Assembly (NCBI GenBank): GCA_944392945.1
Contig: CALXYJ010000004.1
Span: 12,934-76,933, forward strand
Direction of reading: 5' to 3'
Length of the DNA stretch: 64,000 bases
From: an uncultured Clostridia bacterium
GTDB lineage: Bacteria > Bacillota > Clostridia > TANB77 > CAG-508
Positions 1 through 28,999 of this stretch are shown here, in pieces. Both the position numbers and the translations under genes were made by a program. Each line of letters begins with the position of its first letter. Positions within the stretch are counted from its first letter, which is position 1. The notes beneath the pieces are model-generated. The model searched no databases. It saw only the letters and a program-made list of their open reading frames with translations, and was not told the origin of the DNA.

Positions 1-1
1 A

Positions 2-2047: not shown

Positions 2048-2626
2048 TTATATTGATTTTAATGGGAAAGCCCCCTGGCTAAGCCAGGGGGTAGCAACAT
2101 ATTCGCTATTTGAATAATTATCGCTAAAAATGATATTAACAATTCTGTTAACGAGTTCTCCAATATCAGTGATAGTCGTATTTGCTTTGATATCATTTTT
2201 ATATAATTCTTCTATTCTTTCCTGTAAGAAATCTGTTCTTCTTTCTAACTCTCTTGTATACAGAGCAGAGCAGGTAAGGAAACCAATAATTAAACAGATT
2301 ATTGACCAAAGGGCTATAAGCTTCCAAAAGCCATGATAATCAGAATTATCTTCCTCGATCATCTCTTCGATTTCTGCCTCTAATTCTTCTCGAGACAATT
2401 CTGCATACCGTTTATGAAATTTTAAATATTTCTTTAATTCCTCAGTGGAATATTCAGAAAAATCAAAATTGGCTCTAAATTCGTTCTCAAGCTCTAAATC
2501 GGACATTTCCTTCAAGCTTTGATATGGAATGATGTCCTTTAACTCTTCTTCCATCTCTTCCCGGGTATATTTACTGCAATCCCAGAATTTCCGGATTCTT
2601 TGTTCTAGCTTTTTTCTATCTCCCAT
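2048..2626 (-). CDS. Hypothetical single-pass membrane protein with acidic helical N-terminal half (192 aa), on a compositionally atypical cassette
   Basis: ORF track. GGAGGA RBS 6 nt before the ATG. One TM segment (FWKLIALWSIICLIIGFLTCSALY). Codons such as CCG, CGG, TCG and CTC are unlike the neighbours. Confidence 0.6.
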   Translation of the reverse strand: MGDRKKLEQRIRKFWDCSKYTREEMEEELKDIIPYQSLKEMSDLELENEFRANFDFSEYSTEELKKYLKFHKRYAELSREELEAEIEEMIEEDNSDYHGFWKLIALWSIICLIIGFLTCSALYTRELERRTDFLQERIEELYKNDIKANTTITDIGELVNRIVNIIFSDNYSNSEYVATPWLSQGAFPLKSI

Positions 2627-2779
2627 TTTTTGTCCTCCAGTACTATGCTTATATGTTACTTCTTTTTAATCTTCTTTTTTCTATATCTCTCCCTTCTTTA
2701 ATTTAATCCGAATGCGATTTAAATTACGTTTTTGACTCTCCTACTTTTTCAAGTCTCCTTTCTATTTTTTTAGATTTCT

Positions 2780-2788
2780 ATTATACCA
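2780..2788 (-). promoter_or_regulatory. Extended -10 (TGGTATAAT) for the 192-aa gene
   Basis: Minus strand reads ATATGGTATAATAG about 150 nt upstream of the ATG. The -35 is weak (TTTAAA). Confidence 0.35.
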
Positions 2789-2835
2789 TATTTTATCTGT
2801 ATTTAAAAGATTTATATAATATTTTCCTATTTTTA

Positions 2836-2864
2836 TTGAATATTTATGCATATTATGTTAAAAT
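2836..2864 (+). promoter_or_regulatory. Sigma-A type promoter of the T-box leader
   Basis: TTGAAT, 17 nt, then TAAAAT with an upstream TG (TGTTAAAAT). Confidence 0.5.
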
Positions 2865-2870
2865 GTGTTA

Positions 2871-3108
2871 CATATTAATATAAACGTTAAATAAGAGACT
2901 AGTAACATACCTAATTTTTTTTAGAGAGTTTACGGTTGGTGTAAGTAAATAAAAATTATATGCGAATCTACTCTTAGATGTTTTTAGTGAAAGCTAAACC
3001 GTAAGTTAGGCGGTTATCCTACTAATTGAGTGTATTATTTTTATAATAACTTAAGGTGGCACCGCGGATTATATTTCGTCCTTATATTTTTATATAAGGA
3101 CGATTTTT
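2871..3108 (+). promoter_or_regulatory. T-box riboswitch leader, serine specifier (UCU)
   Basis: AGAGAG box (2923-2928); specifier context GAA-UCU-A (UCU at 2967-2969); F-box-like CCGTAA; T-box motif GGTGGCACCGCG (3055-3066); terminator TCGTCCTTATA/TATAAGGACGA plus T-run (3076-3108). Confidence 0.85.
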
Positions 3109-3174
3109 GTTTGTCTAAATAAAATTGTAATTGATGCAATTTATTAGAATATATTTTTATATGGAGGTAGGTTT

Positions 3175-3399
3175 ATGGATCATGTCGAAGTTGGAAAAGT
3201 TTATCGTCATTTTAAAGGAACATATCATCAAGTATTAAATATAGCATTAAATTCGGAAACTCAAGAAAGAATGGTTGTATATAACCATAAAGATAATGGA
3301 CAAATTTGGGTAAGACCTGAAAAAGAATTTTTAGAAAAAATTCCAAAAAGGTCGGATAATATTACAGGTCAAAAACATAGATTTGAAAAAATAGATTAA
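3175..3399 (+). CDS. DUF1653-family small protein
   Basis: VGKVYRHFKGTYHQVLNIALNSETQERMVVY...WVRP pattern typical of DUF1653. GGAGG 7 nt before the ATG. Confidence 0.65.
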   Translation: MDHVEVGKVYRHFKGTYHQVLNIALNSETQERMVVYNHKDNGQIWVRPEKEFLEKIPKRSDNITGQKHRFEKID

Positions 3400-3459
3400 A
3401 TTCATCAAACTCATTGTTTTTTAAATAACGCAAAAATTAAATAATTAGGAGGAATTATT

Positions 3460-4746
3460 ATGATAGATATTAAATTTTTAAGAGAAAATCCTGACATTGT
3501 TAAGGAAAATATTAAGAAAAAATTTCAAGATGAAAAACTAGTATTAGTTGATGAAGTTATAGATTTAGATAAAAAGTCTAGATCTGCTCAGCTTGCGGGC
3601 GATGAATTAAGAAATAAAAGAAAAACATTAAGTGCAGAAATTGGTAATTTAATGAAAAATGGTCAAAAAGATGAAGCAGAAAAGATAAAAGCTGAAGTTC
3701 AAGAGATTAACAATAAATTAGAGGAAAATGAAGCTTTAGAAAATAAATATGCTGAAGAAATTAAAACAAGAATGATGAAAATTCCAAATATTATGCATGA
3801 CTCAGTTCCTATAGGAAAAGATGATAGTGAAAATGTAGAAATCGAAAGATTTGGAGAACCTATAGTTCCAGACTATGAAATTCCATTTCATGGAGAAATA
3901 TTAGAAGCATTAGGTGGATTAGATTTAGATAGTGCAAGACGTGTTGCAGGACAAGGTTTCTATTATCTTATGGGAGATGTTGCAAGACTTCATTCTGCAG
4001 TCTTAACTTATGCCAGAGATTTTATGATAAATAAAGGATTTACCTATTGTATCCCACCTTACATGATTAGAAGTGACGTTGTAACAGGTGTTATGAGCTT
4101 TGAAGAAATGGATGCTATGATGTATAAAATAGAAGGAGAAGATTTATACTTAATAGGTACAAGTGAACATTCTATGATTGGAAAATTTAAGGGTCAAATT
4201 TTAAGAAAAGAAGATATGCCTTATACAATGACATCGTATTCTCCTTGCTTTAGAAAAGAAAAAGGTTCTCATGGTTTAGAAGAACGTGGCGTATATAGAA
4301 TTCACCAATTTGAAAAACAAGAGATGATAGTTGTTTGCGAACCAGAAGATTCTTGGGATTGGTATAATAAAATGTGGTCTTATACAGTTGAATTTTTTAG
4401 AAGTATGAATATTCCTGTAAGAACTTTAGAATGTTGTAGTGGTGATTTGGCAGACTTAAAAGCAAAATCTTGTGATGTAGAAGCTTGGAGTCCAAGACAA
4501 AAGAAATATTTTGAAGTTGGAAGTTGTTCTAACTTAACAGATGCACAAGCTCGTAGATTAGGTATTAGAATAAAAGGTGAAAAAGGAAACTATTTTGCAC
4601 ATACTTTAAATAATACTGTAGTTGCTCCACCACGTATGTTAATTGCAATTATGGAAAATAATTACCAACCAGATGGAAGTGTAATTGTGCCAGAAGTTTT
4701 AAGACCATATATGGGCGGATTAGAAAAAATTGAAGTAAAAAAATAA
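3460..4746 (+). CDS. serS: Seryl-tRNA synthetase
   Basis: N-terminal coiled-coil arm. Class II motifs (FRKEKGSHG, GVYRIHQFEKQE, SCSNLTDAQARRL...NNT). Confidence 0.95.
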   Translation: MIDIKFLRENPDIVKENIKKKFQDEKLVLVDEVIDLDKKSRSAQLAGDELRNKRKTLSAEIGNLMKNGQKDEAEKIKAEVQEINNKLEENEALENKYAEEIKTRMMKIPNIMHDSVPIGKDDSENVEIERFGEPIVPDYEIPFHGEILEALGGLDLDSARRVAGQGFYYLMGDVARLHSAVLTYARDFMINKGFTYCIPPYMIRSDVVTGVMSFEEMDAMMYKIEGEDLYLIGTSEHSMIGKFKGQILRKEDMPYTMTSYSPCFRKEKGSHGLEERGVYRIHQFEKQEMIVVCEPEDSWDWYNKMWSYTVEFFRSMNIPVRTLECCSGDLADLKAKSCDVEAWSPRQKKYFEVGSCSNLTDAQARRLGIRIKGEKGNYFAHTLNNTVVAPPRMLIAIMENNYQPDGSVIVPEVLRPYMGGLEKIEVKK

Positions 4747-4832
4747 AGTAATTGTAAGAACAGTTATATTATTAAAATAAAAATTTTAGTGCATATTTTA
4801 TAAATATCCTTAATATATTTTTATATTGCAAA

Positions 4833-4860
4833 AAGAAGTTCATTTGAACTTCTTTTTTTA
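4833..4860 (+). terminator. serS terminator
   Basis: AAGAAGTTC-attt-GAACTTCTT followed by a T-run. Confidence 0.7.
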
Positions 4861-4878
4861 CAAATTTCTGCTATTTTA

Positions 4879-4907
4879 TTGCCTTTAATTATATAGAGTG
4901 ATATAAT
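4879..4907 (+). promoter_or_regulatory. Promoter of the PurA-family cassette
   Basis: TTGCCT, 17 nt, then TATAAT with extended TG (TGATATAAT). Confidence 0.5.
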
Positions 4908-4970
4908 TTCTTCGTAAGTTTTTATGGTAACTTTTGTTCCTATTGAAATGTCATATAAGGAGGTAAATAA

Positions 4971-6314
4971 GTGAATAAAAATGTAACAGTAGTTGTTGGC
5001 TCTAAGTGGGGCGATGAAGGTAAAGGTAAAATTGCCTCTCGGGAAGCCAAAAATGCAAAACTTGTAATTCGGGCAACCGGCGGGAGCAATGCTGGACACA
5101 CTATTGTATATAATGGTGTAACATTAGCTCTTCACCTTATACCAAGCGGAATTGTGTATCCACAATCCACGGCTATCATCGGTCCTGGTACTGTAGTGGA
5201 TCCGCAGATTTTGCTTATTGAAATCAAGATGCTTGAACAAATGGAAATTCCAAATATCCATGAACGTCTTAAGATCAGTGGCAAAGCACATGTAGTATTT
5301 CCATGGCATAAATATTTGGATGAACTGCATGAAACAGTTAAAAAGCATCCAATCGGAACTACCAAACGTGGAATTGGTCCGGCCTATGCTGATAAAGCTT
5401 CTCGAAAAGGACTCCGGATTTATGATCTTCTTCTTCCTGTTGATGAAATTGAAAAAAAGATTTATGAAAATGTTTATCTTCATAATCAGCTTTTTATTGC
5501 AAACGGGATGGATGAATGTGTAGTGAATCCACATGAAGCAGCTGTTCAATTTTCCATTTATGGCAATCAGCTTCGCCACTATGTTACAGATATAACTCCA
5601 CTTTGCACTGAGGCTATATCAAATAACGAAAAAATCGTTATTGAAGGTGCCCAAGCATACAGATTGGATAATGATGATCCAGAATATCCAAATGTAACAT
5701 CATCACATCCTGTAACATGTGGAGCCATATTAGGAGCTGGACTTCCACCTCAGGCTTTAAAAATTTCTATCGGAGTGGATAAAGCCTATAATACCCGCGT
5801 AGGTAATGGTCCTTTTCCAACAGAGCTTCCTTCATCTATCGGAGAAGATGGAAATATTATTGAAAACCATCCTGTTATGGAAGGAGATATTATCCGAGAA
5901 CTTGGATACGAATATGGAGCCACCACTGGAAGACCACGCCGTTGCGGTTGGATGGATGCAGTAATGCTTCGCTCTGCTAAATATGGATGTGGAATTGATG
6001 TTTTGTGTATCAATCACCTGGATACATTGGGAAAAATCGGAAATAAGATCGGTTATGTTAAGGTTTGTGTTGCATACACGTACATGGGTAAAACTATCAG
6101 CTTTTATCCTGATGACACAAGTCTTACACATGAGATTCCCTCCCCCATTTATGAAACAATTGAAGGTGGATGGGAAATCACATCAGATATGAAATCATTT
6201 ACCGACCTTCCTGAAAAGGCTCAGCAGTTCGTAAAAATTGTTGAACGCGTTTCCGAGATTCCTGTGAAATTTGTTGGCATTGGACCAGCAAATGACGATA
6301 TTATTGAAGTATAA
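4971..6314 (+). CDS. purA: Adenylosuccinate synthetase family protein (divergent, compositionally foreign)
   Basis: GSKWGDEGKGK, GGSNAGH, IGTTKRGIGPAY, EGAQ, NVTSS, GATTGRPRR, GIGP. GTG start 7 nt after AAGGAGG. About 47 G+C per 100 nt in a hand-counted sample. Confidence 0.85.
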   Translation: MNKNVTVVVGSKWGDEGKGKIASREAKNAKLVIRATGGSNAGHTIVYNGVTLALHLIPSGIVYPQSTAIIGPGTVVDPQILLIEIKMLEQMEIPNIHERLKISGKAHVVFPWHKYLDELHETVKKHPIGTTKRGIGPAYADKASRKGLRIYDLLLPVDEIEKKIYENVYLHNQLFIANGMDECVVNPHEAAVQFSIYGNQLRHYVTDITPLCTEAISNNEKIVIEGAQAYRLDNDDPEYPNVTSSHPVTCGAILGAGLPPQALKISIGVDKAYNTRVGNGPFPTELPSSIGEDGNIIENHPVMEGDIIRELGYEYGATTGRPRRCGWMDAVMLRSAKYGCGIDVLCINHLDTLGKIGNKIGYVKVCVAYTYMGKTISFYPDDTSLTHEIPSPIYETIEGGWEITSDMKSFTDLPEKAQQFVKIVERVSEIPVKFVGIGPANDDIIEV

Positions 6315-6351
6315 ATCTACTGTTACCAAAAAGCTTACAAAGTTACAAAAA

Positions 6352-6387
6352 AGAGAGCATTACCTGTGGGTGATTGCTCTCTTTTAT
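6352..6387 (+). terminator. Terminator of the PurA-family cassette
   Basis: AGAGAGCA...TGCTCTCT stem followed by TTTTAT. Confidence 0.55.
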
Positions 6388-6471
6388 AAAATAATCAGTT
6401 TATTTTTTTATTTGCCAAATTAGTTTATTTTATGGTAAAATATATAAACATTAAATGTGAGGAGAATTAAT

Positions 6472-7053
6472 ATGATAGTAAAAGAACCTAAATTTGAAAT
6501 TTCTGCTGTTGGTCCAAAACAATATCCAACAAATAATTTACCAGAAATTGTATTAGTTGGAAAATCCAATGTTGGTAAATCTTCTTTTATAAATACCTTA
6601 ATTAATAGAAAAAAATTAGCCAAAACTAGTAGTGAACCTGGTAAAACAAGACAAATTAATTTTTATAATATAGATTCTAAATTTTACTTTGTAGATTTAC
6701 CTGGATATGGATATAGTAAAATGTCTAAAAAAGAACAAATAATTGTTGGTAATTTTATAGAAGAATATCTACATAAAAGGAAACAAATAGCATTAATCAT
6801 TTTTCTTGTTGATATTAGGCATAGACCAACTGAAAATGATAAATTAATGTACAATTATATAATTAGTAGTAAAATACCTTTTATAATTATTGCAAATAAA
6901 GCTGATAAAATAGCAATTACTAAAGTCGAAAACTCTGTTTTGGAAATCCAAAAAGCTCTAAATCCAATTGGTGACATAACTACCTTACCTTTTTCTTCAG
7001 AAAGAAAAATTTATACAGAATCTGTATGGAATGAAATTGAAAAATATATTTAA
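6472..7053 (+). CDS. engB: Ribosome-biogenesis GTPase EngB/YsxC
   Basis: G1 GKSNVGKSS, G3 DLPGYG, G4 NKADK. GAGGAG 7 nt before the ATG at 6472 (ORF open from GTG 6457). Confidence 0.9.
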   Translation: MIVKEPKFEISAVGPKQYPTNNLPEIVLVGKSNVGKSSFINTLINRKKLAKTSSEPGKTRQINFYNIDSKFYFVDLPGYGYSKMSKKEQIIVGNFIEEYLHKRKQIALIIFLVDIRHRPTENDKLMYNYIISSKIPFIIIANKADKIAITKVENSVLEIQKALNPIGDITTLPFSSERKIYTESVWNEIEKYI

Positions 7054-7066
7054 ATTTAGTATCATC

Positions 7067-7111
7067 GAGAAAGGCGATATTCATTACTAATAAATATCGC
7101 CTTTCTCTTTT
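7067..7111 (+). terminator. engB terminator
   Basis: 14-bp stem GAGAAAGGCGATAT/ATATCGCCTTTCTC followed by TTTT. Confidence 0.7.
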
Positions 7112-7126
7112 AATTCTAATGTTGGT

Positions 7127-8134
7127 TTACAGTGCAACTAAAATTGTCATTTTCTGCTCGTCTTCTTTTTTTATTAATGATTCTGAAACTGCCTCTTCTA
7201 CAACTTTATTAAAGTCTTTACCACCCATTTGTATTGCATATTTAGCCGAACTATATTCGCTCTTTCCGCCATTACGCAACACATAATAATAGAGGCGCCA
7301 GATAGGAAATATCTCATAACTCCCTTCCTTCATGATATCCCTATATTTGATTGCATTTATAGAAATCAATGTCCGAATAACCCTGGTTAAAGCTTGTTGA
7401 TTGGCTTTAAATCTCTCCTGAGCTAATGAAACTACAAATGCATCCTTTTGAGGAAACATGTACTTCAATATACCATCATATTCGCTTTTAGTAAGCATAT
7501 CCTTGAAAATCTTTTTCTTTTCCTCATTGGTATACTGCGGATAGTTCTCTTTTTCTCCATCATCTTTAGCTTCCTCTACAGAAACGTTTGATGCTTCGGA
7601 AGGCTGTTCATTACCTTTTTCAGCATCCGGATTTTTCTTTGCTTCTTGCGCCTTTGTTTTTTCCGGCTGTTTTTCTTCTGGAATCAGTTCCGATTTTTTA
7701 TGCAAAAAATATTTACAATCGTCTTCATTCCTATCCAGCATTCTTTTTTTATCCATACAGCGTAATACGTTATATGCAGAACTATAACTTATATCCAAGG
7801 CTGCAGCCACTTCAGTCGTTGAATAAGATTTACCTGTACTCATAAGTGTAAGGATTCTTTCTTGAATAGTTACAGTTTTGTTTTTAGTTTTTTCTTCAGG
7901 TCTAGGACTTTCATCTTTTGGAATCTCTTCTTTGCTTTCATCAATTTTTTCAAATGTTACTTGCTTTACGAGATTACACTCCAAAAGATCTAAGAAGATC
8001 TTTGAAACGGTCGATTGTGAATCAACGGAGCATTTTAATTCTCCATCAAAGTCTATTCCTTCAATGGACCGATTCAAAATTTTTTCTAAGATCCTCTTTT
8101 GAGCCTCTGGATTTTTTGTTTTAATTAATACCAT
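7127..8134 (-). CDS. Hypothetical protein with central winged-helix (MarR/ArsR-like) segment, acidic linker and second helical C-domain (335 aa), on an atypical-composition cassette
   Basis: AAGGAG 6 nt before the ATG at 8134 (ORF track starts at TTG 8155). wHTH-like TIQERILTLMSTGKSYSTTEVAAALDISYSSAYNVLRCM. Three shadow ORFs lie inside. Confidence 0.6.
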   Translation of the reverse strand: MVLIKTKNPEAQKRILEKILNRSIEGIDFDGELKCSVDSQSTVSKIFLDLLECNLVKQVTFEKIDESKEEIPKDESPRPEEKTKNKTVTIQERILTLMSTGKSYSTTEVAAALDISYSSAYNVLRCMDKKRMLDRNEDDCKYFLHKKSELIPEEKQPEKTKAQEAKKNPDAEKGNEQPSEASNVSVEEAKDDGEKENYPQYTNEEKKKIFKDMLTKSEYDGILKYMFPQKDAFVVSLAQERFKANQQALTRVIRTLISINAIKYRDIMKEGSYEIFPIWRLYYYVLRNGGKSEYSSAKYAIQMGGKDFNKVVEEAVSESLIKKEDEQKMTILVAL

Positions 8135-8242
8135 AAGGATCTCCTTTCTTAGCAAATCTGCGAGTTACAATGACATTTCTTTTATACACCATTCCTTTCT
8201 TAAATTATTTTACTTAAGATGTCTCAACTATTAGCATGGCTT

Positions 8243-8271
8243 TATTTTATCATAATATACATTTTTTTACA
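8243..8271 (-). promoter_or_regulatory. Promoter of the 335-aa gene
   Basis: Minus strand TTGTAA, 17 nt, then TAAAAT with extended TG (TGATAAAAT). Confidence 0.4.
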
Positions 8272-8302
8272 ATAATCTTTCCATACTAGGTAATTGTCCC
8301 AC

Positions 8303-8336
8303 AAAAAAAGATTGTAGCTAATCTACAATCTTTTTT
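8303..8336 (-). terminator. Terminator of the sortase-DUF951 unit
   Basis: AGATTGTAG/CTACAATCT stem with a T-run on the minus strand. Overlaps the DUF951 stop codon. Confidence 0.65.
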
Positions 8337-8497
8337 GTTATCATTTTTAATGCCTTTTGCCTTTCTACTAAAATAAAATGTCCACATCCTTCACACTTAA
8401 GTCCAAAATCTACTCCAACTCTTGTTATCTTCCATAATTTACTCCCACATGGATGTGCTTTTTTAGTTTTTACTATATCCCCCACATTATATTCCAT
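8318..8497 (-). CDS. DUF951-family small protein (59 aa; below the ORF-track cutoff)
   Basis: Own translation: MEYNVGDIVKTKKAHPCGSKLWKITRVGVDFGLKCEGCGHFILVERQKALKMITKKIVD. The HPCG...C-x-GCGH pattern matches YyzM/DUF951. The ATG overlaps the sortase TAA by 1 nt. Confidence 0.7.
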   Translation of the reverse strand: MEYNVGDIVKTKKAHPCGSKLWKITRVGVDFGLKCEGCGHFILVERQKALKMITKKIVD

Positions 8498-9240
8498 TAT
8501 AACACCTCTGTTGCTTTTACAATAATTCTTTCCTTTGAATCATCTGTACAAGTAATTAAAGTAATATCTTTTCTTCCATTAGTTAATGGACTTATTGGTG
8601 ACATATCATCATCTGAAACTTGATATTTATTATATACTGTATACTTAACAGTTCTTCCCTTTGTATCTGTTATTTCTATTATATCTCCATTTTCCAATGT
8701 TGGTACTTTACTAAAAAATTTTTTATTTCTATAATTATGTCCTGCTATACAAAAATTTCCTACTTCATTTGGCTCACCTTCCCAAAATCTAGTTGGTGCT
8801 TTTTTTAATAGCTCATCCGTTGTTTCTGATAATATTGGATAATAAATATCTATTTTAGGTATTTTTATAGTTGCAATTGGATAATATTTTTGTCCATCAG
8901 ATGTTGTATACTCTTTAGACAATAATTCATTTTCTTCTGTTGTCTCTTCTTCAGAAGAAGCACCACTATCTGCATTTAATGTATTTGCATCATTATCTAA
9001 CATTACAACTAATTTATCTGTAGGTTTAGTTGTTTGGTCTTCTCCAACAATATTGGCTTGTGCCAATATATCTTGAGAAACTGCTTCATCTTTATTTTTA
9101 TCATATTCTGCATATATATAATAAGAAGATAATACACAAACAATTACAAGAGAAATGAAAAATTCAAATTTGTAAAATTTTTTCTTTCTCTTTAATTCTG
9201 GCGTTATATATAGTTTTTCAGTTACAAGAATTTGATTCAT
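8497..9240 (-). CDS. Sortase-family transpeptidase
   Basis: N-terminal TM anchor, His in FCIAGHNY, catalytic TLITCT motif. GGAGG 5 nt before the ATG at 9240. Confidence 0.8.
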   Translation of the reverse strand: MNQILVTEKLYITPELKRKKKFYKFEFFISLVIVCVLSSYYIYAEYDKNKDEAVSQDILAQANIVGEDQTTKPTDKLVVMLDNDANTLNADSGASSEEETTEENELLSKEYTTSDGQKYYPIATIKIPKIDIYYPILSETTDELLKKAPTRFWEGEPNEVGNFCIAGHNYRNKKFFSKVPTLENGDIIEITDTKGRTVKYTVYNKYQVSDDDMSPISPLTNGRKDITLITCTDDSKERIIVKATEVL

Positions 9241-9335
9241 GATTACCTCCTTTTTTATCTTTTTATCCGAATACATTATACCATCTTAAGTATTTTTTTT
9301 CAATAATTGTTAATATGTTTTTAAAATACAAAAAT

Positions 9336-10190
9336 TTATTTATATAAAATATTTGATATGCTAGCAAAATCTTCTATCTTTAATTTTTCACTCCTAATTT
9401 TTTCATCTATATTTAGTTCTTTTAAAATTCTAGATAAAGTTTCTTTATCTGATATTCCGTTATTTGTTAGTGCATTTAATAAGGTTTTTCTTCTTTGCAA
9501 AAAAGCAATTTTTATTAAATTAAAAAATGCTTTTTCATTATGTATCTCTACAGGAGGCTGTTTCCTAATTTTTATTTTTATAACTTCTGATGTTACAGCA
9601 GGTTCTGGAATAAAAGATGTATTTGGAACTTCCAAAATTTTTTCTGCAATTCCATAATAATAAACTGTATATGTTATTGCACCAGTATTTTTTCCTCCAG
9701 GTATTTCTGTAAGCCTATCTGCAACTTCTTTTTGAATCATTACTGTGATACTTTCTATATTAATTTTGTTTTCTAATAAATTCATAATTATTGGAGTTGT
9801 AATATAATATGGTAAATTTGCTACTATTTTAGCACTTTTTAAATTATATTTTTCTTTTGCATTTTGTATAATTTTATTTAAATCTACTTTTAATATATCA
9901 TCATTAATAACTTCAAAATTTTTATATAAAAAGAACCTCTCTTTTAATAATTCTATCATTCTTTTGTCTAATTCCACACATATAACTTGTCCAGCTCTAT
10001 CTAATAAAAACTTCGTTAAGGTACCTAAACCAGGGCCTATCTCTATTACTAAATCATCAGAACTAATATCTGATTCATCTATTGCTGTATTTATAACATT
10101 TTCATCAATCAAAAAATTTTGTCCTAAATTTTTATTAGCTTTTATATTGTATTTTTCCATTAAAAATTTTGTTTCTTGGTATAAATTCAT
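9336..10190 (-). CDS. rsmA: 16S rRNA (adenine1518/1519-N6)-dimethyltransferase
   Basis: LGQNFLID, SAM motif IEIGPGLGTLT, NLPYYITTPI. Confidence 0.93.
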   Translation of the reverse strand: MNLYQETKFLMEKYNIKANKNLGQNFLIDENVINTAIDESDISSDDLVIEIGPGLGTLTKFLLDRAGQVICVELDKRMIELLKERFFLYKNFEVINDDILKVDLNKIIQNAKEKYNLKSAKIVANLPYYITTPIIMNLLENKINIESITVMIQKEVADRLTEIPGGKNTGAITYTVYYYGIAEKILEVPNTSFIPEPAVTSEVIKIKIRKQPPVEIHNEKAFFNLIKIAFLQRRKTLLNALTNNGISDKETLSRILKELNIDEKIRSEKLKIEDFASISNILYK

Positions 10191-10295
10191 TTTCTATCTC
10201 CATTTTCATTTTATAACTTTCATTTAATTATAACAGCCCTACTTAAATTATGTCAAATTCTTTTGTGAAAAATATGTGATTTGGTTGATTTTGGT

Positions 10296-10326
10296 AAATA
10301 CTTAATATACAATATATTAAGTATTT
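10296..10326. repeat. Perfect 14-bp inverted repeat upstream of the PBP gene
   Basis: AAATACTTAATATA-caa-TATATTAAGTATTT, 40 nt before the ATG at 10367. Confidence 0.8.
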
Positions 10327-10366
10327 GTTAATATTTAACATAAATTCGTTTAATTAGGTGATTCAT

Positions 10367-12679
10367 ATGAAAAAGAATAATAAAAAATTTAGATTTCCAA
10401 AATCAAAAAAATCAAATTCAAAATTATATAAATCTGCCAATAATGAATTTGCAACAAATTCACTGGCAATAAAAAAATTCAGAATAGTACTAATCTCATT
10501 ATTAATTATATTTTTATTATTAATAATAAGACTTATATGGCTTCAATTTGTGCAAGGAGCTGACTTAAAAGAACAAGCATATAATCAACAAACTACAGAT
10601 CAAATTATTAGCACTAGTAGAGGTACAATTTATGATGCTACAGGTAAAAAATTAGCAATAAGTACTCCAACAGATACCGTCTCAGTTAATCCTAAACAAA
10701 TTGTTGGTTCTACAGATGAGGAAACTAAAACTAAAAAAGAAAAAATAGCTAAAGCGTTTTCAGAAATTTTTGAACTAGATTATGATGAAACTTTAGAAAA
10801 ATTAAATAGTAACTCTAATGTTCAAACTATTGCTAAAAAAGTAGATAAAGATAAGATAGATAAATTAAAAGAATGGATGCAAACAGAAAAAATAAGTACT
10901 GGTATTAATATTGATGAAGATACTAAAAGAGTATATCCATATAATAATTTAGCTTCAAATTTAATAGGATTTTGTGGTACAGATAATACTGGAATACAAG
11001 GTTTAGAAGATAAATGGAATAGTGTTTTACAGGGTACTCCTGGTAAAATAACAACTTCAACAGATGCTATTCAAGAAGAAATACCAGATAGTAACCAAAC
11101 ATATATCCCTGCAGAAAATGGTAGTGATATTGTTTTAACAATTGATGTATATATACAAACAATTGTAGAAAAATACCTAAAACAAGCTGTTGAAGAAAAC
11201 CATGCTGATAGTGGTACTGTTGTTGCAATGGCTCCTAGTACTGGTGATATTCTAGCTATGGCTTGTTACCCAGATTATAATTTAAATACACCATTCGAGC
11301 CAAATACTGAAGAATTAAAATCTGTATGGGATACACTAGATTCTGCTACTCAATCAGAGGAATTATATAATATGTGGAAAAATGATGTTATTTCTTCTCC
11401 TTATGAACCTGGTTCTCCATATAAATTGATTACTGCAGCTACTGCATTAGAAGAAAATATTACAAGTGAAGATGTTCCAAATGATTTTTATTGTGATGGT
11501 TCAATAAAAATAGGAGATAGAACTATTAGTTGTTGGACACAAGCACATAAAGGTGGAAAATCCTTAAGGCAAGCTTTACAAGTTTCTTGTAATCCATCCC
11601 TAATTCAATTAGGTCAACGTATTGGTGCAGAAACTTTATATAAATATTACCAAGCATTTGGATTTTTTGATAAAACAGGAATCGATTTACCTTCTGAAGC
11701 AAGTAGTACATATTGGGATTTAGAAGATGTTCATGAGGTAGAACTTGCAACAATGTCTTTTGGGCAAAGATTTACAATTACACCAATTCAGTTAGTATCT
11801 GCTGTATCTGCAATAGCAAATGATGGAATCTTAATGAAACCTAGAATTGTAAAACAAATTATAAATCCAGAAACAAATACAACAACAGATATTGAACCTG
11901 TACAAGTAAGACAAGTTATCTCTAAATCAACTTCAGAAAGAATGAGAAACTTAATGAAATCTGTTGTAGATGATGGTTCTGGTAGACTTGCAAAAGTTGA
12001 AGGCTATTCTATAGGTGGTAAAACTGGTACTTCAGAACCTCAAACTGGTAGAGAAGATGAAGGTTATATTGCATCTTATGTAGCCATTGCTCCTACAGAA
12101 AAACCCGAAATTTGCTTATTAATAGCTGTACATAATCCAAATCCAAATAATGAAGGTAGCCACCAAGGTGGTCAAGTTTGTGGACCAGTTGTTTCACAAA
12201 TGTTATCAGAAATTCTACCATATATGGGTATAAATTCTAATAATACTCAAACAACTACAGATCCCGTAGAAGAAGATTCAAATTATGTTACTGTTCCAGA
12301 TATCAGGAACAAAACAGTTACTGAAGCAGAAAAAATACTAAAACAAGCTGGTTTTACAACAAAGATTTCTATTTCTGGAGATAAAAATTCAACTTTAGTT
12401 ACAGACCAAATGCCAAAACCTGGTTCTAGCATACCTAAGGATTCTATTATAATATTATACTCTGAAGAAAATGATACTAGAGTTTCTGTAAAAGTACCTG
12501 ATTTTAAAAATAAAACATTAGCACAAGCAGAAAATATAGCTAAGGCAAGTAATCTAAATATAACCTCAGAAGGTTCCGGAACAGTTATAAGTCAAAGTAT
12601 AATGGTTGATACTGCTGTTGAAGAAGGTACTATTATAAAATTAACTTTATCAACTGATAATGATGGAACCAATCAATAA
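10367..12679 (+). CDS. Class B penicillin-binding protein (FtsI/PBP2B/SpoVD family) with two C-terminal PASTA domains
   Basis: TM anchor, SxxK (SPYK), SxN (SCN), KTG (KTGT), two PASTA-like repeats near the C-terminus. AGGTGA RBS before the ATG at 10367. Confidence 0.88.
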   Translation: MKKNNKKFRFPKSKKSNSKLYKSANNEFATNSLAIKKFRIVLISLLIIFLLLIIRLIWLQFVQGADLKEQAYNQQTTDQIISTSRGTIYDATGKKLAISTPTDTVSVNPKQIVGSTDEETKTKKEKIAKAFSEIFELDYDETLEKLNSNSNVQTIAKKVDKDKIDKLKEWMQTEKISTGINIDEDTKRVYPYNNLASNLIGFCGTDNTGIQGLEDKWNSVLQGTPGKITTSTDAIQEEIPDSNQTYIPAENGSDIVLTIDVYIQTIVEKYLKQAVEENHADSGTVVAMAPSTGDILAMACYPDYNLNTPFEPNTEELKSVWDTLDSATQSEELYNMWKNDVISSPYEPGSPYKLITAATALEENITSEDVPNDFYCDGSIKIGDRTISCWTQAHKGGKSLRQALQVSCNPSLIQLGQRIGAETLYKYYQAFGFFDKTGIDLPSEASSTYWDLEDVHEVELATMSFGQRFTITPIQLVSAVSAIANDGILMKPRIVKQIINPETNTTTDIEPVQVRQVISKSTSERMRNLMKSVVDDGSGRLAKVEGYSIGGKTGTSEPQTGREDEGYIASYVAIAPTEKPEICLLIAVHNPNPNNEGSHQGGQVCGPVVSQMLSEILPYMGINSNNTQTTTDPVEEDSNYVTVPDIRNKTVTEAEKILKQAGFTTKISISGDKNSTLVTDQMPKPGSSIPKDSIIILYSEENDTRVSVKVPDFKNKTLAQAENIAKASNLNITSEGSGTVISQSIMVDTAVEEGTIIKLTLSTDNDGTNQ

Positions 12680-12714
12680 AAAAATCACTTAGAATTACAT
12701 TCTTTTAAAAAAAT

Positions 12715-12745
12715 ACCGTGGAAATAAAATTCCACGGTTTATTAC
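12715..12745 (+). terminator. PBP gene terminator
   Basis: ACCGTGGAA-ataaaa-TTCCACGGT followed by TTATT. Confidence 0.6.
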
Positions 12746-12816
12746 TAGATAATTATGGTAAATGTAAGATTTTCGACACTTAGTGAATGTTAAAAATCTT
12801 ACATTCACTTTTTATA
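12738..12816 (+). repeat. About 80-nt palindromic dispersed element, family 2, copy a
   Basis: TTTATTACTAGATAATTATGG...AATGTAAGATTTT...AAAATCTTACATTCACTTTTTATA. Aligns end to end with the reverse complement of 23132-23213. Confidence 0.8.
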
Positions 12817-15424: not shown

Positions 15425-15530
15425 ATAAATCTCTCCTTTGTATGTTTTAATTAATTTATATGCACATACTATTTTTTTATTACTTCATTTCACCTATTTT
15501 TCTAGTTTACATATTATATATAGAGGTGAT

Positions 15531-16157: not shown

Positions 16158-16182
16158 ATAGTATTTATTTTTATGTGAACTT

Positions 16183-16206
16183 GTGATATAATTTTATTTA
16201 TATCAC
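16183..16206 (+). promoter_or_regulatory. Extended -10 (TGATATAAT) embedded in a 9-bp inverted repeat, upstream of the 75-aa gene
   Basis: GTGATATAA-ttttat-TTATATCAC, with TATAAT at 16187-16192. Confidence 0.4.
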
Positions 16207-16224
16207 ACAAAGGAGGAAAAATAA

Positions 16225-16452
16225 ATGACATTGGAAATTACTTATCGGTATGGAGTTTATAAAAGGACAAAGATAATTACCACTCCGGACGATAAGCTCT
16301 ATGAAGCCTGTATAAAATATATCTCGTTATATGGTAGCGTAGAGCACTCTCCCGAAGGAGACAAAATCGAGCTTAAATCGCAGGAAGATTTTAATACAGC
16401 AGAAAACATGCTGACTCAACTCTGCATTGCTCATAAAAAGGGATTGGTGTAA
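16225..16452 (+). CDS. Small hypothetical protein (75 aa), on an atypical-composition cassette
   Basis: AAAGGAGG RBS 7 nt before the ATG. Codons CGG, CCG, CTC, TCG, GCC. No motif recognised. Confidence 0.5.
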   Translation: MTLEITYRYGVYKRTKIITTPDDKLYEACIKYISLYGSVEHSPEGDKIELKSQEDFNTAENMLTQLCIAHKKGLV

Positions 16453-16468
16453 CAGCCAGTCCCTTTTT
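16436..16468. terminator. Bidirectional terminator shared by the 75-aa gene and smc
   Basis: AGGGATTGG/CCAGTCCCT (one G-U) flanked by an A-run and a T-run. Overlaps the stop at 16450-16452. Confidence 0.55.
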
Positions 16469-16488
16469 ATTGTTAAATAAACTTATAA

Positions 16489-20182: not shown

Positions 20183-21073
20183 ATGTTTAAAGAGAAATTC
20201 GATTTTTACGATAAAACAGTTTTAAAATCTTATGACTTAGATTCGGCTGCAAGATATCAGTTAAAAATGTTAGATTCCTTAGATAATTTTACTAGAAAAC
20301 ATTCAGAAAGTGTCGCAAATTTAACTTGTAGAATTTGTGATTATTTACATTTAAACAAGGATTTTACTATATATTGCACCACATGTGCATATTTACATGA
20401 TATTGGAAAAATGTTCATTCCTCCTTCAATCTTGCAAAAACCTGGTAAGCTTACAGATGATGAATATGAAATAATGAAAACTCATACAAGTATTGGTTAT
20501 AAAATGTGCATGAATGACACTAAATTAAGACCATATTCAGCTGGTCCTAGATGGCATCACGAAGCTCTAGATGGAAGTGGATATCCAGATGGGTTAAAAG
20601 GAGACAAAATTCCTATAGAAGATCAAATTATTAGAGTTGCAGATGAGTTTGACGCAATTGTTAGTAAAAGACAATATAAATCCCATGTTGGTATAACAGA
20701 TACCTTAAAAATGTTAATAGAAAATGCTCATTCTGGAAAAAATAACATACCTGCCACAAAAGCCTTAAAAAAAGTTGTAATAGATGATACTATTTATGAG
20801 ATTTCTTGTACTTTTGATTATTTAGATTATCTAAAAGAAAATATAAAAAGATTAAAACAAATAAAAAAATACTATGATAAAATGACTTCTTCACATTCTC
20901 AAAAACAAAAAAATTATTATTTAGAAGGCATGAAAATGCTTTTTACAGAAGGAGAAACTGAAGAAAATTTCCAAAATATTTTATCAGAATATAAAGAAGC
21001 TTTAAGTTCTAGATCACAGGTTATAGACAAATTAAATGCTGAACTAAAAGAAATTAAAAAACTAAAAATATAA
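20183..21073 (+). CDS. HD-GYP domain protein (putative cyclic-dinucleotide phosphodiesterase), paralog 1
   Basis: YLHDIGK, KTHT, HHEALDGSGYPDGL, RVADEFDA. Coiled-coil C-terminus and no sensor domain. Confidence 0.8.
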   Translation: MFKEKFDFYDKTVLKSYDLDSAARYQLKMLDSLDNFTRKHSESVANLTCRICDYLHLNKDFTIYCTTCAYLHDIGKMFIPPSILQKPGKLTDDEYEIMKTHTSIGYKMCMNDTKLRPYSAGPRWHHEALDGSGYPDGLKGDKIPIEDQIIRVADEFDAIVSKRQYKSHVGITDTLKMLIENAHSGKNNIPATKALKKVVIDDTIYEISCTFDYLDYLKENIKRLKQIKKYYDKMTSSHSQKQKNYYLEGMKMLFTEGETEENFQNILSEYKEALSSRSQVIDKLNAELKEIKKLKI

Positions 21074-21099: not shown

Positions 21100-22035
21100 A
21101 TGCTAGATAATAAATTTGATTTTTATGATAAAACTACATTAAAGTCGTACAATTTAGATGTTACAATGAGATATCAACTTACAATGTTAGATAGTCTTGA
21201 TCCATTTACTAGAATTCATAGTGAAAATGTAGCAAGTATTACTTGTAGATTATGCGAATATTTACATTGTGATAAAAACTTTACTTCTTATTGTACTATT
21301 TGTGCATATTTACATGATATTGGGAAAATGTTTATTCCACCTAAAATATTAAACAAACCTGATAAACTAACAGATGACGAATTTGAAATAATGAAAACTC
21401 ATACACTTATTGGGTATAAAATGTGCATGGATGATATTAGATTAAGACCATATGCATTAGGTCCAAAATATCATCACGAAACATTGGATGGAACAGGTTA
21501 TCCAGAAGGATTAACTGGTAGTTTAATTCCATATGAAGATCAAATTATAAAAGTTGCAGATGATTATGATGCTTTAGTTACTAAAAGGCAATATAAAACT
21601 CATATTCATATATCAGATACATTAAAAGATTTATTAAAAGATACTGAACCTAATATAAAAATTGCAGCACTAGATAATGCAGCCCAAGGCGTACGACTTG
21701 GAAAACTTAATAAAAAAGTTGTTAAAGCTTTATTTAAAGTTGTAATTGATGATACTTATTACGAAATTTCTTGTGTTACAGGATATGTTGATTATTTAAA
21801 AGATCAAATAAAAAGAATTGAAAAAATATTAGAATATGAAGAAAAAATGAATAAATCTAATTCCGAAAAAAAGAAAAATTACTACAAGGAAGGAATGGAA
21901 ATCTTATTCCAAGATGGCGAAAATTTTAATAATATTCATCAAATATATCATGAATATCAAACTGCATATTCAATAAGAAAAGATATGGTTCAAAAATTAT
22001 ATAATGAGATAAAAATAATTAAAAAATTAAATTAA
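21100..22035 (+). CDS. HD-GYP domain protein, paralog 2
   Basis: YLHDIGK, HHETLDGTGYPEGL, KVADDYDA. Collinear with the upstream paralog. Confidence 0.8.
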   Translation: MLDNKFDFYDKTTLKSYNLDVTMRYQLTMLDSLDPFTRIHSENVASITCRLCEYLHCDKNFTSYCTICAYLHDIGKMFIPPKILNKPDKLTDDEFEIMKTHTLIGYKMCMDDIRLRPYALGPKYHHETLDGTGYPEGLTGSLIPYEDQIIKVADDYDALVTKRQYKTHIHISDTLKDLLKDTEPNIKIAALDNAAQGVRLGKLNKKVVKALFKVVIDDTYYEISCVTGYVDYLKDQIKRIEKILEYEEKMNKSNSEKKKNYYKEGMEILFQDGENFNNIHQIYHEYQTAYSIRKDMVQKLYNEIKIIKKLN

Positions 22036-23275: not shown

Positions 23276-23287
23276 ATATATTTCTAT

Positions 23288-26284: not shown

Positions 26285-26304
26285 ATTTAACCTCCAAACG
26301 TTAA

Positions 26305-27099: not shown

Positions 27100-27160
27100 A
27101 AAACTTCCTCCTTAAGCTAGTGCTTTTATATCTCATTTATACATAAAATTTGACACTATA

Positions 27161-27189
27161 ATAATATATGAAAAACTCTAAAAAGTCAA
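27161..27189 (-). promoter_or_regulatory. Promoter directly upstream of minD
   Basis: Minus strand TTGACT, 17 nt, then TATTAT. Confidence 0.45.
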
Positions 27190-27235
27190 TGCTAGAATCC
27201 TTATTTGCGTAAGATTTATGCCTTTTTTATAACCG

Positions 27236-27267
27236 CCAAACGAGCGGGTTAACTCCCGCTCGTTTGG
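27236..27267. terminator. GC-rich 13-bp perfect hairpin after the 549-aa gene (no adjacent T-run on the transcribed strand)
   Basis: CCAAACGAGCGGG-ttaact-CCCGCTCGTTTGG. Composition unlike the surrounding DNA. Confidence 0.45.
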
Positions 27268-27273
27268 TATTAC

Positions 27274-28923
27274 TTAAACAATAAAATCCGCAGAATAAAA
27301 GAAGGCAAATAAACGAATATATTTCTCCTTTGTTCCAATATTCCGCTGTGATTCGACAAATTCCTCTCTTGAAATATAATTATTATCAAGAGCCTCCAAA
27401 ACTTTATTGATTTTGGAAAAATCCGCATTTTTACTCGAAAGATTATTAAGAGAATATTTCCGTAACTCCTTTTTAATATTTTCTTTATAATCTTCCATTG
27501 CTTTTTCGCATATTCTAGCGATTTCTTCGTCGTCGTTCTCTCTCCACAGTCCATGGCGTAAAGCTGCAAGTGCTTCTACTTTAGTATCAGCTTTTTCGAT
27601 TCCTCCTGCAACTACTTTTAAATCATCCATTAAACTTTTGAGGATTTCTTCCATGGCCAATCCTTTAATTTTTTCTTCGCTCTGTTTATATGCTTTTTCT
27701 AAATTGTCAGAGTCAATCTCTTTAAGTTTCAACAGGAAAAGAGACTCCATGAATTTCCAATCTTCATTTACTCCTTTTCTTTCCATTTCATTTACCATAA
27801 TTGGCCTAATCAAACGAAATGTTTGAAACAACCAGCAAATTTCGTTCAATAGATCTTCATATTCCCATGGTGCCTTATATAATGAATCTAAATCTAAGAA
27901 CTCTATTTTTTGGATAATCAGACTCTTTAGCTTTCTAGCCATAACAACAGCCTCATTTATTACAGCATTTCTTTCTTCTTTTTTTGAAAGATTAAAATAC
28001 ACTGCAATAAATTCTTCATCGCTTAAAACAATTGCTTGTGCAAGGTTAAAATAATAATTTTCAGCAATCAATTGTTCAGAAGAACACTCTGTCTTAATTT
28101 CAGCAATACTTTGTTCGATTCTGTGGATACTTTTAGTACTGAAAATTTTAGGCTCATATAAAAAATTTTTCGCATTTGCCAAAGCTTTCCAAAAAGTAAC
28201 TCTTTCTTTTGTTAAGCTCTTGAAGATATTGTTGTACAAAACATCCTTTAAGCTAACATCTTCCAGAATTACCCACGGCAATGAGGCACTTTCTAAACCT
28301 CTTTCTAAAATATCCAAAATAATTAAGATATAATAGATTACCCTGTGAATCATTCGTTCTTCATACTTTCCAGACACCTCTTTTATATTGCTTAAAATTT
28401 TGTCCGGTAATATTATTTTTGACAGGTCTGATTCAAAATCTACTATAAAAGCTTCACCTCCGTTAATATCTGGTAAATAAATTTCCGGTACTTGAAAATT
28501 TTTATTTTTCTCCTCATTTAACACTTTTTTTAGGAAAGACGTATTGTCTAATGCATCAAGAATTACATCTATGGTATGAACTTTTGCGACTTCTCTTTCC
28601 TCTGTTGCAATTTTAAGTGGCTTACCTAAAACAGCAATTCCAATCTGAGTCAGTAAATTATATTCTTCATAGATTTCTTTTTGTAATTCATTCATCTCAC
28701 CATATAAAATCTGCTTAATATTATCCCAGAGATTTCTGGCCCTTTCCATACTCTTTTCATTATTATGCATTACTGCATAAATCCGTTTTGAATACATTGC
28801 TGAAAATTTTAAATTTTCTAACTCCTCCTTATCCAAGTTCTTTTTTGCAACGGCTCTTAAGTTTCCAAAATACATGTCGAACTCCTTTAGTTCTTTTGGT
28901 CTTAATTTTGGTCTAATAATCAT
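27274..28923 (-). CDS. Hypothetical 549-aa predominantly helical protein, no recognisable catalytic motif
   Basis: ORF track. AAAGGAGG RBS. About 34 G+C per 100 nt in a hand-counted sample. C-ending and GC-rich codons are more frequent than in neighbours. Confidence 0.65.
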   Translation of the reverse strand: MIIRPKLRPKELKEFDMYFGNLRAVAKKNLDKEELENLKFSAMYSKRIYAVMHNNEKSMERARNLWDNIKQILYGEMNELQKEIYEEYNLLTQIGIAVLGKPLKIATEEREVAKVHTIDVILDALDNTSFLKKVLNEEKNKNFQVPEIYLPDINGGEAFIVDFESDLSKIILPDKILSNIKEVSGKYEERMIHRVIYYILIILDILERGLESASLPWVILEDVSLKDVLYNNIFKSLTKERVTFWKALANAKNFLYEPKIFSTKSIHRIEQSIAEIKTECSSEQLIAENYYFNLAQAIVLSDEEFIAVYFNLSKKEERNAVINEAVVMARKLKSLIIQKIEFLDLDSLYKAPWEYEDLLNEICWLFQTFRLIRPIMVNEMERKGVNEDWKFMESLFLLKLKEIDSDNLEKAYKQSEEKIKGLAMEEILKSLMDDLKVVAGGIEKADTKVEALAALRHGLWRENDDEEIARICEKAMEDYKENIKKELRKYSLNNLSSKNADFSKINKVLEALDNNYISREEFVESQRNIGTKEKYIRLFAFFYSADFIV

Positions 28924-28970
28924 TTCATATCCTCCTTTTGACCTTTCTCCTACTCGTTTTTAACATTAAG

Positions 28971-28999
28971 ATTATATCACTTTTCTGTAATTATGTCTA
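28971..28999 (-). promoter_or_regulatory. Promoter of the 549-aa gene
   Basis: Minus strand TAGACA, 17 nt, then TATAAT with extended TG (TGATATAAT). Confidence 0.45.

Follow-up and report, generated by a model that had tools for sequence, protein, structure and literature searches.

Five atypical genes of an uncultured gut Clostridia lineage are probably independent occupants of hypervariable inter-operon slots

Results and Discussion

The five genes and their slots

A 64-kb stretch of contig CALXYJ010000004.1 from an uncultured Clostridia bacterium (the window) carries five genes, here X1 to X5, whose codon usage differs sharply from that of their surroundings. The analysis of these genes rests on the window, 184 related loci (designated by L numbers) and protein collections. 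The results indicate that the five genes are probably independent occupants of slots between operons that are hypervariable across the genus, and not one imported kit. X1, X3 and X5 are members of clade-restricted families that occupy the same slots in sister species. X alleles would be swapped between lineages by homologous recombination in the conserved flanks. The raised G+C content at the third codon position (GC3) is a property of this variable gene class across the clade and is maintained. Since the X families show it in every clade genome, it is not the fingerprint of a donor.

The window has a G+C content of 27.3% and contains lexA, a T-box-led DUF1653-serS unit, engB, a DUF951-sortase unit, ksgA, a gene for a SpoVD-type penicillin-binding protein, a Ca-ATPase gene, ytaF, smc, GerS and FtsW genes, minE, minD and porCDAB. 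When one genome per GTDB species was scanned with EngB, the matches came exclusively from metagenome-assembled genomes of uncultured gut Clostridia (Clostridium sp. CAG:354, CAG:389, CAG:575 and similar), with core proteins 74-97% identical to those of the window. The host genus comprises very A+T-rich, uncultured, spore-forming gut Clostridia.

The open reading frames (ORFs) and coordinates of the five genes proposed in an earlier sequence-only reading hold, and so does their compositional oddity. GC3 is 0.326 in X1, 0.261 in X2, 0.297 in X3, 0.395 in X4 and 0.273 in X5, that is, 0.26-0.40, compared with a mean of 0.127 (standard deviation 0.026, maximum 0.218) in the core set, which comprises 51 window genes of at least 100 amino acids. 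This places X1-X5 at z = 5.1-10.1. The clustering by codon usage that the earlier reading had suggested was run on the window genes by average linkage on synonymous codon frequencies and set X1, X2, X3 and X5 apart from the 51 others; X4 was too short and was left out. Codons ending in C and in G are both raised (ATC 0.28 versus 0.04, CAG 0.44 versus 0.13, CCG 0.17 versus 0.01), and third-position C amounts to 0.10-0.17 in the X genes versus 0.04 in the core. ATA accounts for 0.17 of the isoleucine codons versus 0.56 in the core, and CGG plus CGC for 0.30 of the arginine codons versus 0.00. CGG alone was counted once among 17,479 core codons but 12 times among the 1,605 codons of the X genes (Fisher p = 1e-12), and each of X1-X5 has at least one. 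A tRNA-Arg(CCG) was found in none of 60 related loci, a result that is uninformative.

All five genes lie within 27 kb and none alike occurs in the following 34 kb; between 30 and 64 kb there is no sixth raised-GC3 gene of this kind. Within the species X1-X5 are fixed: each of 16 contigs from other samples that are >99.5% identical to the window carries all five. Their synonymous divergence is broadly that of neighbouring genes, and the ratio of nonsynonymous to synonymous substitution (dN/dS) is 0.2-0.4 within the species versus <0.1 in the core. In close pairs, dN/dS of the X genes is 0.2-0.66.

Allele replacement in fixed slots

The five slots, lexA/serS (X1), serS/engB (X2), engB/DUF951-sortase (X3), ytaF/smc (X4) and porC/minD (X5), all differ among congeners with 80-100% identical flanks. 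X1, X3 and X5 proteins are 24-60% identical where the flanking proteins are 90-100% identical. In L001-L012, core proteins are 80-97% identical, compared with 35-38% for X1 and 26-34% for X3, and GC3 of the slot genes is 0.19-0.42.

X3 (7127-8134, minus strand) encodes 335 amino acids, or 342 if translation starts at the TTG at 8155. It is present in the window and in groups A and B of the congeners and absent from L013-L015, and its classes in congeners are 25-34% identical. In seven congeners (L001-L005, L007 and L009) the core proteins are 94-99% identical. Within L001-L004 the identity of X3 amounts to 74-96%, but it drops to 30-33% when these four are compared with L005, L007 and L009. 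L001 and L003 share 97% of the core and 96% of X3, whereas L001 shares 94-96% of the core and 30-33% of X3 with L005, L007 and L009. Synonymous divergence (pS) of X3 is 0.09-0.17 in pairs of the same class, as in the flanks, and 0.69-0.76, i.e. saturated, in pairs of different classes. A nucleotide comparison of L001 with L005 gives 92-98% identity in engB and DUF951, 70-88% in the promoter and leader of X3, and about 45% across its coding sequence and terminator.

The AlphaFold2 model of X3 has a confidence score (pLDDT) of 77, with folded domains above 85 (domains 88-146 and 200-335 about 85-93). It predicts that an alpha/beta domain at the N-terminus is followed by a single winged helix, a disordered linker of acidic character and a tandem winged helix. 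Foldseek matched single domains to the winged helices of Z-alpha/Z-beta, AspA and IclR (TM-score per target 0.65-0.85, root-mean-square deviation 1.3-1.7 Å), and the array to multi-winged-helix proteins (TFIIIC tauB, ESCRT-II, ScpB and SelB WH2-4) with no specific family; the X3 profile matches AspA at E = 1.3e-3. By its model, X3 is thus a predicted winged helix-turn-helix protein, as the sequence-only reading had it, and may be a multi-winged-helix nucleic-acid binder or scaffold. Against PADLOC and PHROG it gave only marginal winged-helix matches (E about 1e-3). A search of 1.84e9 representative proteins with the X3 family profile returned 17 matches below 1e-30 and about 40 below 1e-10. 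The best-scoring of these whose composition was examined all have the amino-acid make-up of A+T-rich hosts. In a distant member that adjoins adhE, GC3 is 0.36 versus 0.14 in adhE.

X5 (27274-28923, minus strand) encodes a 549-residue, mostly helical orphan with a poor AlphaFold2 model (pLDDT 55). None of its alleles matches Pfam, and no PADLOC or PHROG match was found. Its relatives form 8 clusters among 5.8e9 proteins, 40-48% identical; those looked up (L081 and L083) lie between porC (94-95%) and minD (98%) and have a GC3 of 0.29-0.30. A MinD-based metagenome scan added L105-L110, with X5 alleles 26-30% identical where MinD is 95-99% and PorC 94-95% identical. In L081, L105 and L106/107, PorC is 100% identical and the slot proteins 27-37%; MinD of L105 and L106/107 is 99-100% identical. 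At the nucleotide level, the flanks of L105 and L107 are 99.3% and 95.2% identical, and the coding sequence from codon ~25 to the stop 35-65%, while the two have their promoter, terminator and first 24 codons in common. Borders of the same kind occur around window X5 at about 28880 and 27235. The first ~24 codons (28852-28923, minus strand) are kept in every allele class, with the consensus M-[IL]-I-[KR]-x-K-L-R-P-K-E-L-x-E-F-[ND]-x-[YW]-F-G-[DN]-L-K, and the remainder is hypervariable (24-60% identical). The conserved N-terminus might be a handle for targeting or for binding a partner, or no more than a recombination border. In L116, L154 and L157 the slot is empty and porC abuts minD. A role of X5 as MinC or its substitute was rejected on account of these empty slots, the mostly helical model and the lack of a domain match in any allele.

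At these borders identity drops from ~95-100% to random level within tens of bases, at the promoter or N-terminus and at the terminator. The alleles of X3 and X5 form discrete, very old classes that do not follow the species tree. Core genes of L001-L009 also show mosaic pS: the sortase gene differs by 0.36 from L003 and 0.10 from L004, DUF1653 shows 0.06 versus 0.31, and engB 0.35 versus 0.05-0.14. This mosaic synonymous divergence indicates that homologous recombination between lineages is common here. The integrase-independent route that the earlier reading had left unspecified is thus supported, probably in the form of exchange by homologous recombination in the flanks, to which the sharp breakpoints, the discrete X3 and X5 classes and the mosaic flanking pS all point.

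The diversity of the X alleles may be kept by diversifying or frequency-dependent selection. Each X gene alone could then act as a specificity or conflict determinant, towards phage, competitors or in self-recognition; among these determinants, X1 would be bitopic in the membrane, and X5 large and helical, with 24 conserved N-terminal residues as a handle. As the X1, X3 and X5 families and their 117- and 76-110-residue partners in relatives show hallmarks of strong diversifying selection, they are good candidates for phage-host or cell-cell specificity. Identity with a known defence system was rejected for lack of PADLOC or PHROG support.

X1 and the lexA/serS slot

X1 (2048-2626, minus strand) encodes a 192-residue bitopic membrane protein between lexA and the T-box-led serS unit. 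It is built of acidic N-terminal S-x-Y-T-R-E-E-L/M repeats, one transmembrane helix and a short coiled coil, and it belongs to no Pfam, NCBIfam, PADLOC or PHROG family. Its positional homologs in congeners are 35-38% identical and have a GC3 of 0.21-0.42. The nucleotide identity of the window and L001, 80-92% next to this region, is down to 30-65% from about 1990 to 2810. X1 is present in the window and in groups A and B and missing in L013 and L015; in L014 the slot lies outside the contig. Its divergence roughly scales with that of the core.

Most of the 548-nt stretch beside X1 that had looked empty is accounted for by a T-box leader (2878-3086, plus strand; Rfam RF00230, 103.8 bits), which precedes DUF1653-serS, is 87-98% conserved in L001 and was the sole match in an Rfam scan of the window.

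In the lexA/serS slot of congeners, genes of two more raised-GC3 orphan families come after X1, neither of which occurs in the window. One consists of 117-residue proteins (GC3 0.24-0.38), and the other of 76-110-residue proteins with a transmembrane segment plus coiled coil, whose GC3 reaches 0.45-0.70 in a 28% G+C genome. In L001 the two additional genes lie at 5913-6266 and 6405-6662, both on the minus strand, the 117-residue family among them, and they have counterparts in L002-L013. X1, X3, X5 and these two partners are clade-restricted families that are newly defined in widespread uncultured gut Clostridia.

X2, X4 and their slots

X2 (4971-6314, plus strand) is a genuine purA, encoding adenylosuccinate synthetase, and scores above the cut-offs over its full length with PF00709 (446 bits, cut-off 27), NF002223 (441.4, cut-off 402) and TIGR00184 (399.9, cut-off 395.55). 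PurZ was rejected as an identity (110.6 bits versus a cut-off of 300). The order serS-purA-engB also occurs in L005, L014, L015, L021, L028 and L051. Because it recurs in several genera, this position of purA is ancestral. The nearest relatives of X2 all lie inside the clade's own purA radiation. The purA genes of L014 and L015 have a host-like GC3 of 0.11-0.12, whereas those of the window and L005 form a long-branched clade in the tree with a GC3 of 0.26-0.27, so that X2 belongs to a divergent, G+C-richer allele lineage, which is also the faster one. Window and L005 purA are only 74% identical although SerS is 96% identical, and many congeners have no purA in the slot. The gene comprises two deep lineages and was often lost.

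In some congeners the serS/engB slot harbors two accessory genes (194 and 116-133 amino acids; L001 8913-9870 and L005 7374-8390, minus strand) with a GC3 of 0.08-0.18. These values are typical of the host, and accessory status alone therefore need not entail raised GC3.

X4 (16225-16452, plus strand) encodes a 75-residue orphan in the ytaF/smc slot of this species only. It occurs in all strains of the species, has no homolog among the 184 related loci and matches no Pfam, NCBIfam, PADLOC or PHROG model. The corresponding gap in congeners is either empty or contains palindromes resembling repetitive extragenic palindromic (REP) elements. L013 and L014 carry copies there that are related to the GAACTTTAGGGACGTTCCTTAAAGTTCA palindrome family, and L001 a tandem array of a G+C-rich unit of ~19 nt (GGAACGTCCCCAAATCCCT). 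In the window, REP-like palindromes (GAACTTTAGGGACGTTCCTTAAAGTTCA) of 31 nt each lie at gene ends at 29692, 29739, 32355, 56541 and 60745.

Maintenance of raised GC3

The direction of substitution was reconstructed by parsimony in L001, L003 and L004, with or without L002, at codons with unchanged amino acid (a few hundred sites). X1, the neighbouring 117-residue gene and X3 formed the X set, which was compared with adjacent core genes. Changes from A or T to G or C (W>S) occurred at 0.11-0.17 per W site in the X set versus 0.07-0.085 in the core (p = 0.01 to 4e-6), and the reverse changes (S>W) at 0.31-0.34 versus 0.39-0.45 per S site. The stationary GC3 implied for the X set is 0.27-0.34, compared with an actual value of 0.30-0.32. 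The share of W>S changes in the X set was 0.44-0.55, whereas 0.25-0.34 is expected at the neighbours' rates (p = 2e-4 and 4e-5). Decay of the X genes at the rates of neighbouring core genes is thus rejected (p about 1e-4). Singleton counts between species from seven taxa were discarded because they are biased by fast-decaying GC sites.

Two candidate causes of the raised GC3 were rejected. One was an avoidance of motifs of the MazF type (UACAU/ACA) or of A/T runs, for these show no depletion beyond composition. The other was translational selection: GC3 is lowest in the genes for ribosomal proteins, and codons ending in G are also raised. Possible causes are selection on codon choice, a biased process that is gene-specific, and an unsampled pool; selection on codon choice is favoured over repeated reseeding from such a pool. 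A bolder proposal, speculative and unlikely as it stands, is that the hypervariable slot loci are held by selection in a separate codon dialect, with a GC3 of about 0.3 versus 0.1 and free use of CGG and CGC. The X genes might then depend for their translation on a scarce tRNA or on a particular physiological state, for instance sporulation or stress, in the manner of the bldA/TTA system; instead of selection, gene-specific biased repair or conversion could produce the same dialect. If true, the codon dialect would mark a functional class rather than ancestry.

Several observations weigh against the view of the five genes as slot occupants that exchange alleles and maintain their composition. 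Steady fast divergence in place fits X1 as well as allele exchange does, as judged from the sequence comparisons. No allele polymorphism was seen within this species at any slot, and swapping is documented in sister species. The functions suggested for the X proteins are wholly inferred, with X1, X4 and X5 lacking a family, a PADLOC defence match or a PHROG phage match. Within-species single-nucleotide polymorphisms of the X genes are too few (13 polarised, 6 W>S and 7 S>W) and possibly stem from recombination imports; a first, smaller sample with 2 W>S versus 9 S>W had suggested decay, which was not repeated in the larger one. Finally, the equilibrium implied for the core by parsimony on 3-4 taxa (0.14-0.18) exceeds the actual value of 0.09. 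This shows a shared bias and makes the figures rough, but the contrast between neighbouring genes stands.

Alternative origins of the atypical genes

The slots might be reseeded repeatedly from an unsampled reservoir of higher G+C content, such as phages, plasmids or a rarer sister lineage, so that raised GC3 would reflect recent arrival. This is unlikely. In favour of such reseeding, allele replacement is demonstrated, congeners have small ORFs in these slots with a GC3 as high as 0.45-0.70, and the hairpin of window X5 is part of the swapped segment. However, tblastn searches found no relatives of X5 and X3 in 50,697 phage records and none of X5, X3 and X1 in 72,556 plasmids, and the X3 and X5 family profiles had no match in the 2.9 million viral contigs of IMG/VR. 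Furthermore, the X3 members examined among the representative proteins look like proteins of A+T-rich hosts, and since promoter and N-terminus are conserved, any donor must have had this same locus.

It is quite improbable that the X genes are plain orphans which evolve very fast in place under weak constraint and without exchange, their raised GC3 being a by-product of relaxed codon selection. The dN/dS of up to 0.66 in close pairs, the rough tracking of core divergence by X1 and the coincidence of the faster with the G+C-richer purA lineage are in line with this explanation. Point mutation in place, however, cannot produce X3 and X5 alleles of random-level identity between 95-100% identical flanks when pS within a class equals that of the flanks. 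Ribosomal-protein genes and weakly expressed core genes have equally low GC3, which gives no sign of a strong codon selection to relax, and intergenic G+C, at 0.23, is lower than the GC3 of the X genes.

It is very improbable that the five genes make up a single functional system with its parts dispersed instead of joined in an operon, as the sequence-only reading had considered. The genes share a common codon usage, are confined to the same 27 kb, and X1 and X3 occur together in the window and in groups A and B, X3 being absent from L013-L015 and X1 from L013 and L015. A single gain or loss on the tree, however, explains this co-occurrence. The allele types of X1 and X3 vary independently, which speaks against linkage: between L001 and L005, X1 is 87% and X3 30% identical. 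X4 is specific to this species and was seen in no other genome, purA, which encodes a housekeeping enzyme, has a patchy history of its own and elsewhere takes a form with low GC3, unrelated raised-GC3 genes occur beside engB in other genera, and the common build of the genes is generic.

For the five genes, recent import from a single donor, or from several with similar G+C content, and with fading composition is hardly credible. In its favour, the codon usage is sharply unlike that of the host and alike among the five, nearly any donor would be richer in G+C than this 27% genome, and the choice of arginine codons resembles that of Firmicutes with 35-45% G+C. However, wherever a congener carries the X1, X3 or X5 family, the positional homolog shows the same raised GC3, the relatives of these three genes among 5.8-15 billion proteins come solely from the same A+T-rich clade, the family members examined have the amino-acid make-up of such hosts, X2 nests in the clade's own purA radiation at an ancestral position, no near-identical donor copy was found for any of X1-X5 (the best non-self matches, 75% for purA, 48% for X5, 34% for X3 and 38% for X1, are all from the same clade), phage, plasmid and IMG/VR relatives are missing, and decay at neighbouring core-gene rates is rejected in the L001 group.

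Atypical composition is thus not always the result of recent import from a common donor. The foreign-looking X genes would instead be old residents of fixed slots that are swapped as alleles by ordinary recombination. It remains a puzzle that they keep a third-position G+C content two to four times that of their immediate neighbours.

Comparison with known variable loci

The X slots are a variant of known genome variability, with the maintained codon dialect as the added feature. They resemble the minimal mobile elements (MMEs) of Neisseria (Saunders & Snyder 2002; Snyder et al. 2007), which are described as variable regions between specific conserved flanking genes (PMC3787668). Like MMEs, the X slots vary between conserved flanking genes among closest relatives, differ in composition from the surrounding chromosome, also in congeners, and lack mobility genes, att sites and terminal repeats of their own. 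The X slots bear a signature of recombination in their discrete classes, sharp breakpoints and mosaic flanking pS, and may be exchanged through their flanks after DNA uptake, as in MMEs. In contrast to MMEs, they hold mostly divergent alleles of one clade-restricted family and not unrelated cassettes, the alleles share promoter, N-terminus and sometimes terminator, the raised GC3 is maintained over time, and the host is an uncultured Clostridia lineage.

Hypervariable specificity loci with conserved flanks include the comQXP pherotypes of Bacillus, the staphylococcal agr groups and capsule or O-antigen loci. The X slots share with them discrete, ancient classes that cross species and have sharp borders, as is expected under frequency-dependent selection. 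The X loci differ in being single genes and in having no recognisable signalling peptide, receptor kinase or glycosyltransferase. With integron gene cassettes the X genes have in common that they are single and compact, end in a 3' hairpin and are odd in composition. However, the five hairpins are unrelated in sequence, the X genes have their own promoters, the hairpins after X3 and X4 also serve the convergent neighbour, and the genes form no array. Integron cassettes were therefore rejected, as the window holds no shared attC and no integrase.

As in genomic islands and in the model of ameliorating foreign DNA reportedly put forward by Lawrence and Ochman, the X genes are non-core genes with atypical codon usage and rare codons. 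They differ in being old residents of the clade without integrase, tRNA or repeat borders and without decay in the direction of substitution. In Streptomyces, developmental genes are gated by a rare codon through bldA/TTA. CGG and CGC, nearly absent from the core and found in the few non-core X genes, are reminiscent of this system, but the whole codon usage of the X genes is shifted and not one codon, so that the likeness is an analogy only.

Promoters, terminators and marks of mobility

The extended -10 boxes ahead of the five genes lie where the sequence-only reading had placed them: at 2780-2788 (minus strand; TGGTATAAT), ~150 nt upstream of X1; at 4899-4907 (plus strand) for X2, as part of a promoter at 4879-4907 (TTGCCT, 17 nt, TGATATAAT); at 8244-8252 (minus strand; the extended -10-like TGATAAAAT) for X3; at 16184-16192 (plus strand; TGATATAAT) for X4; and at 28971-28979 (minus strand; TGATATAAT) for X5, within the conserved porC-X5 intergenic region. 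The motif TGNTATAAT occurs 15 times in the window versus 11.3±2.9 expected, and also ahead of ksgA, the sortase operon and other genes. As it is not enriched and precedes ordinary genes, it represents the organism's usual promoter type and not a shared signature.

Of the hairpins that had been ascribed to each of the five genes, those of X2, X3, X4 and X5 are supported (z = -3 to -7.5), while that of X1 is no better than shuffled sequence. X2 is followed by a terminator hairpin and U run (6349-6385, plus strand; z = -2.97). Convergent engB and X3 share a bidirectional terminator with a 19-bp stem (7068-7107; z = -7.5), and a hairpin over the X4 stop codon (16440-16463; z = -3.5) serves as terminator of X4 and convergent smc. 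The 13-bp G+C-rich hairpin 3' of X5 (27236-27267, minus strand) is part of the variable segment in this species and occurs only with this X5 allele. The hairpins after the X genes are ordinary terminators. A promoter and hairpin signature common to the five genes, the "same build" of the earlier reading, was therefore rejected, both elements being generic.

The marks of mobility that the sequence-only reading had looked for in vain are indeed lacking: the window contains no tRNA, integrase, att target or flanking direct repeats, and the slot genes encode no integrase or transposase domain. An integrase-mediated genomic island was rejected on these grounds.

Further observations

Raised-GC3 genes were also seen in other genera of the family. 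In L016-L080, unrelated small ORFs with a GC3 of 0.25-0.40 recur one to two genes downstream of engB, e.g. in L029 (216 amino acids), L037 and L052 (91-92), L067 (209) and L079 (151), and near engB of L070 three such ORFs of ~90 amino acids lie in a row. A few recognisable genes at these loci likewise have GC3 >0.25, namely those for Spo0A_C, acetate kinase, SpoVAC, YabP and a reverse transcriptase.

Over window positions 1-20000, the species is thinly present in four chicken-gut "RNA-Seq" runs of uncertain library type, and X3 (7190-7869) is represented by exact pieces in three of them. Six of the 13 listed long near-exact pieces from such runs fall in X genes (p ~0.01); as these are contigs from libraries of uncertain type, they were not used as evidence.

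A 96-residue plus-strand ORF at 32370-32660 (GC3 0.44) was rejected as a sixth cassette, being the shadow of a minus-strand gene at ~32390-32560 for a 56-residue 2x[4Fe-4S] ferredoxin (MAYKITDKCISCGACAAECPVGCISQGEDKFVIDPEACISCGTCAGVCPVEAPEEE). The HD-domain genes at 20183-21073 and 21100-22035 are tandem paralogs, with 78% identity over 300 nt between 20252-20551 and 21169-21468.

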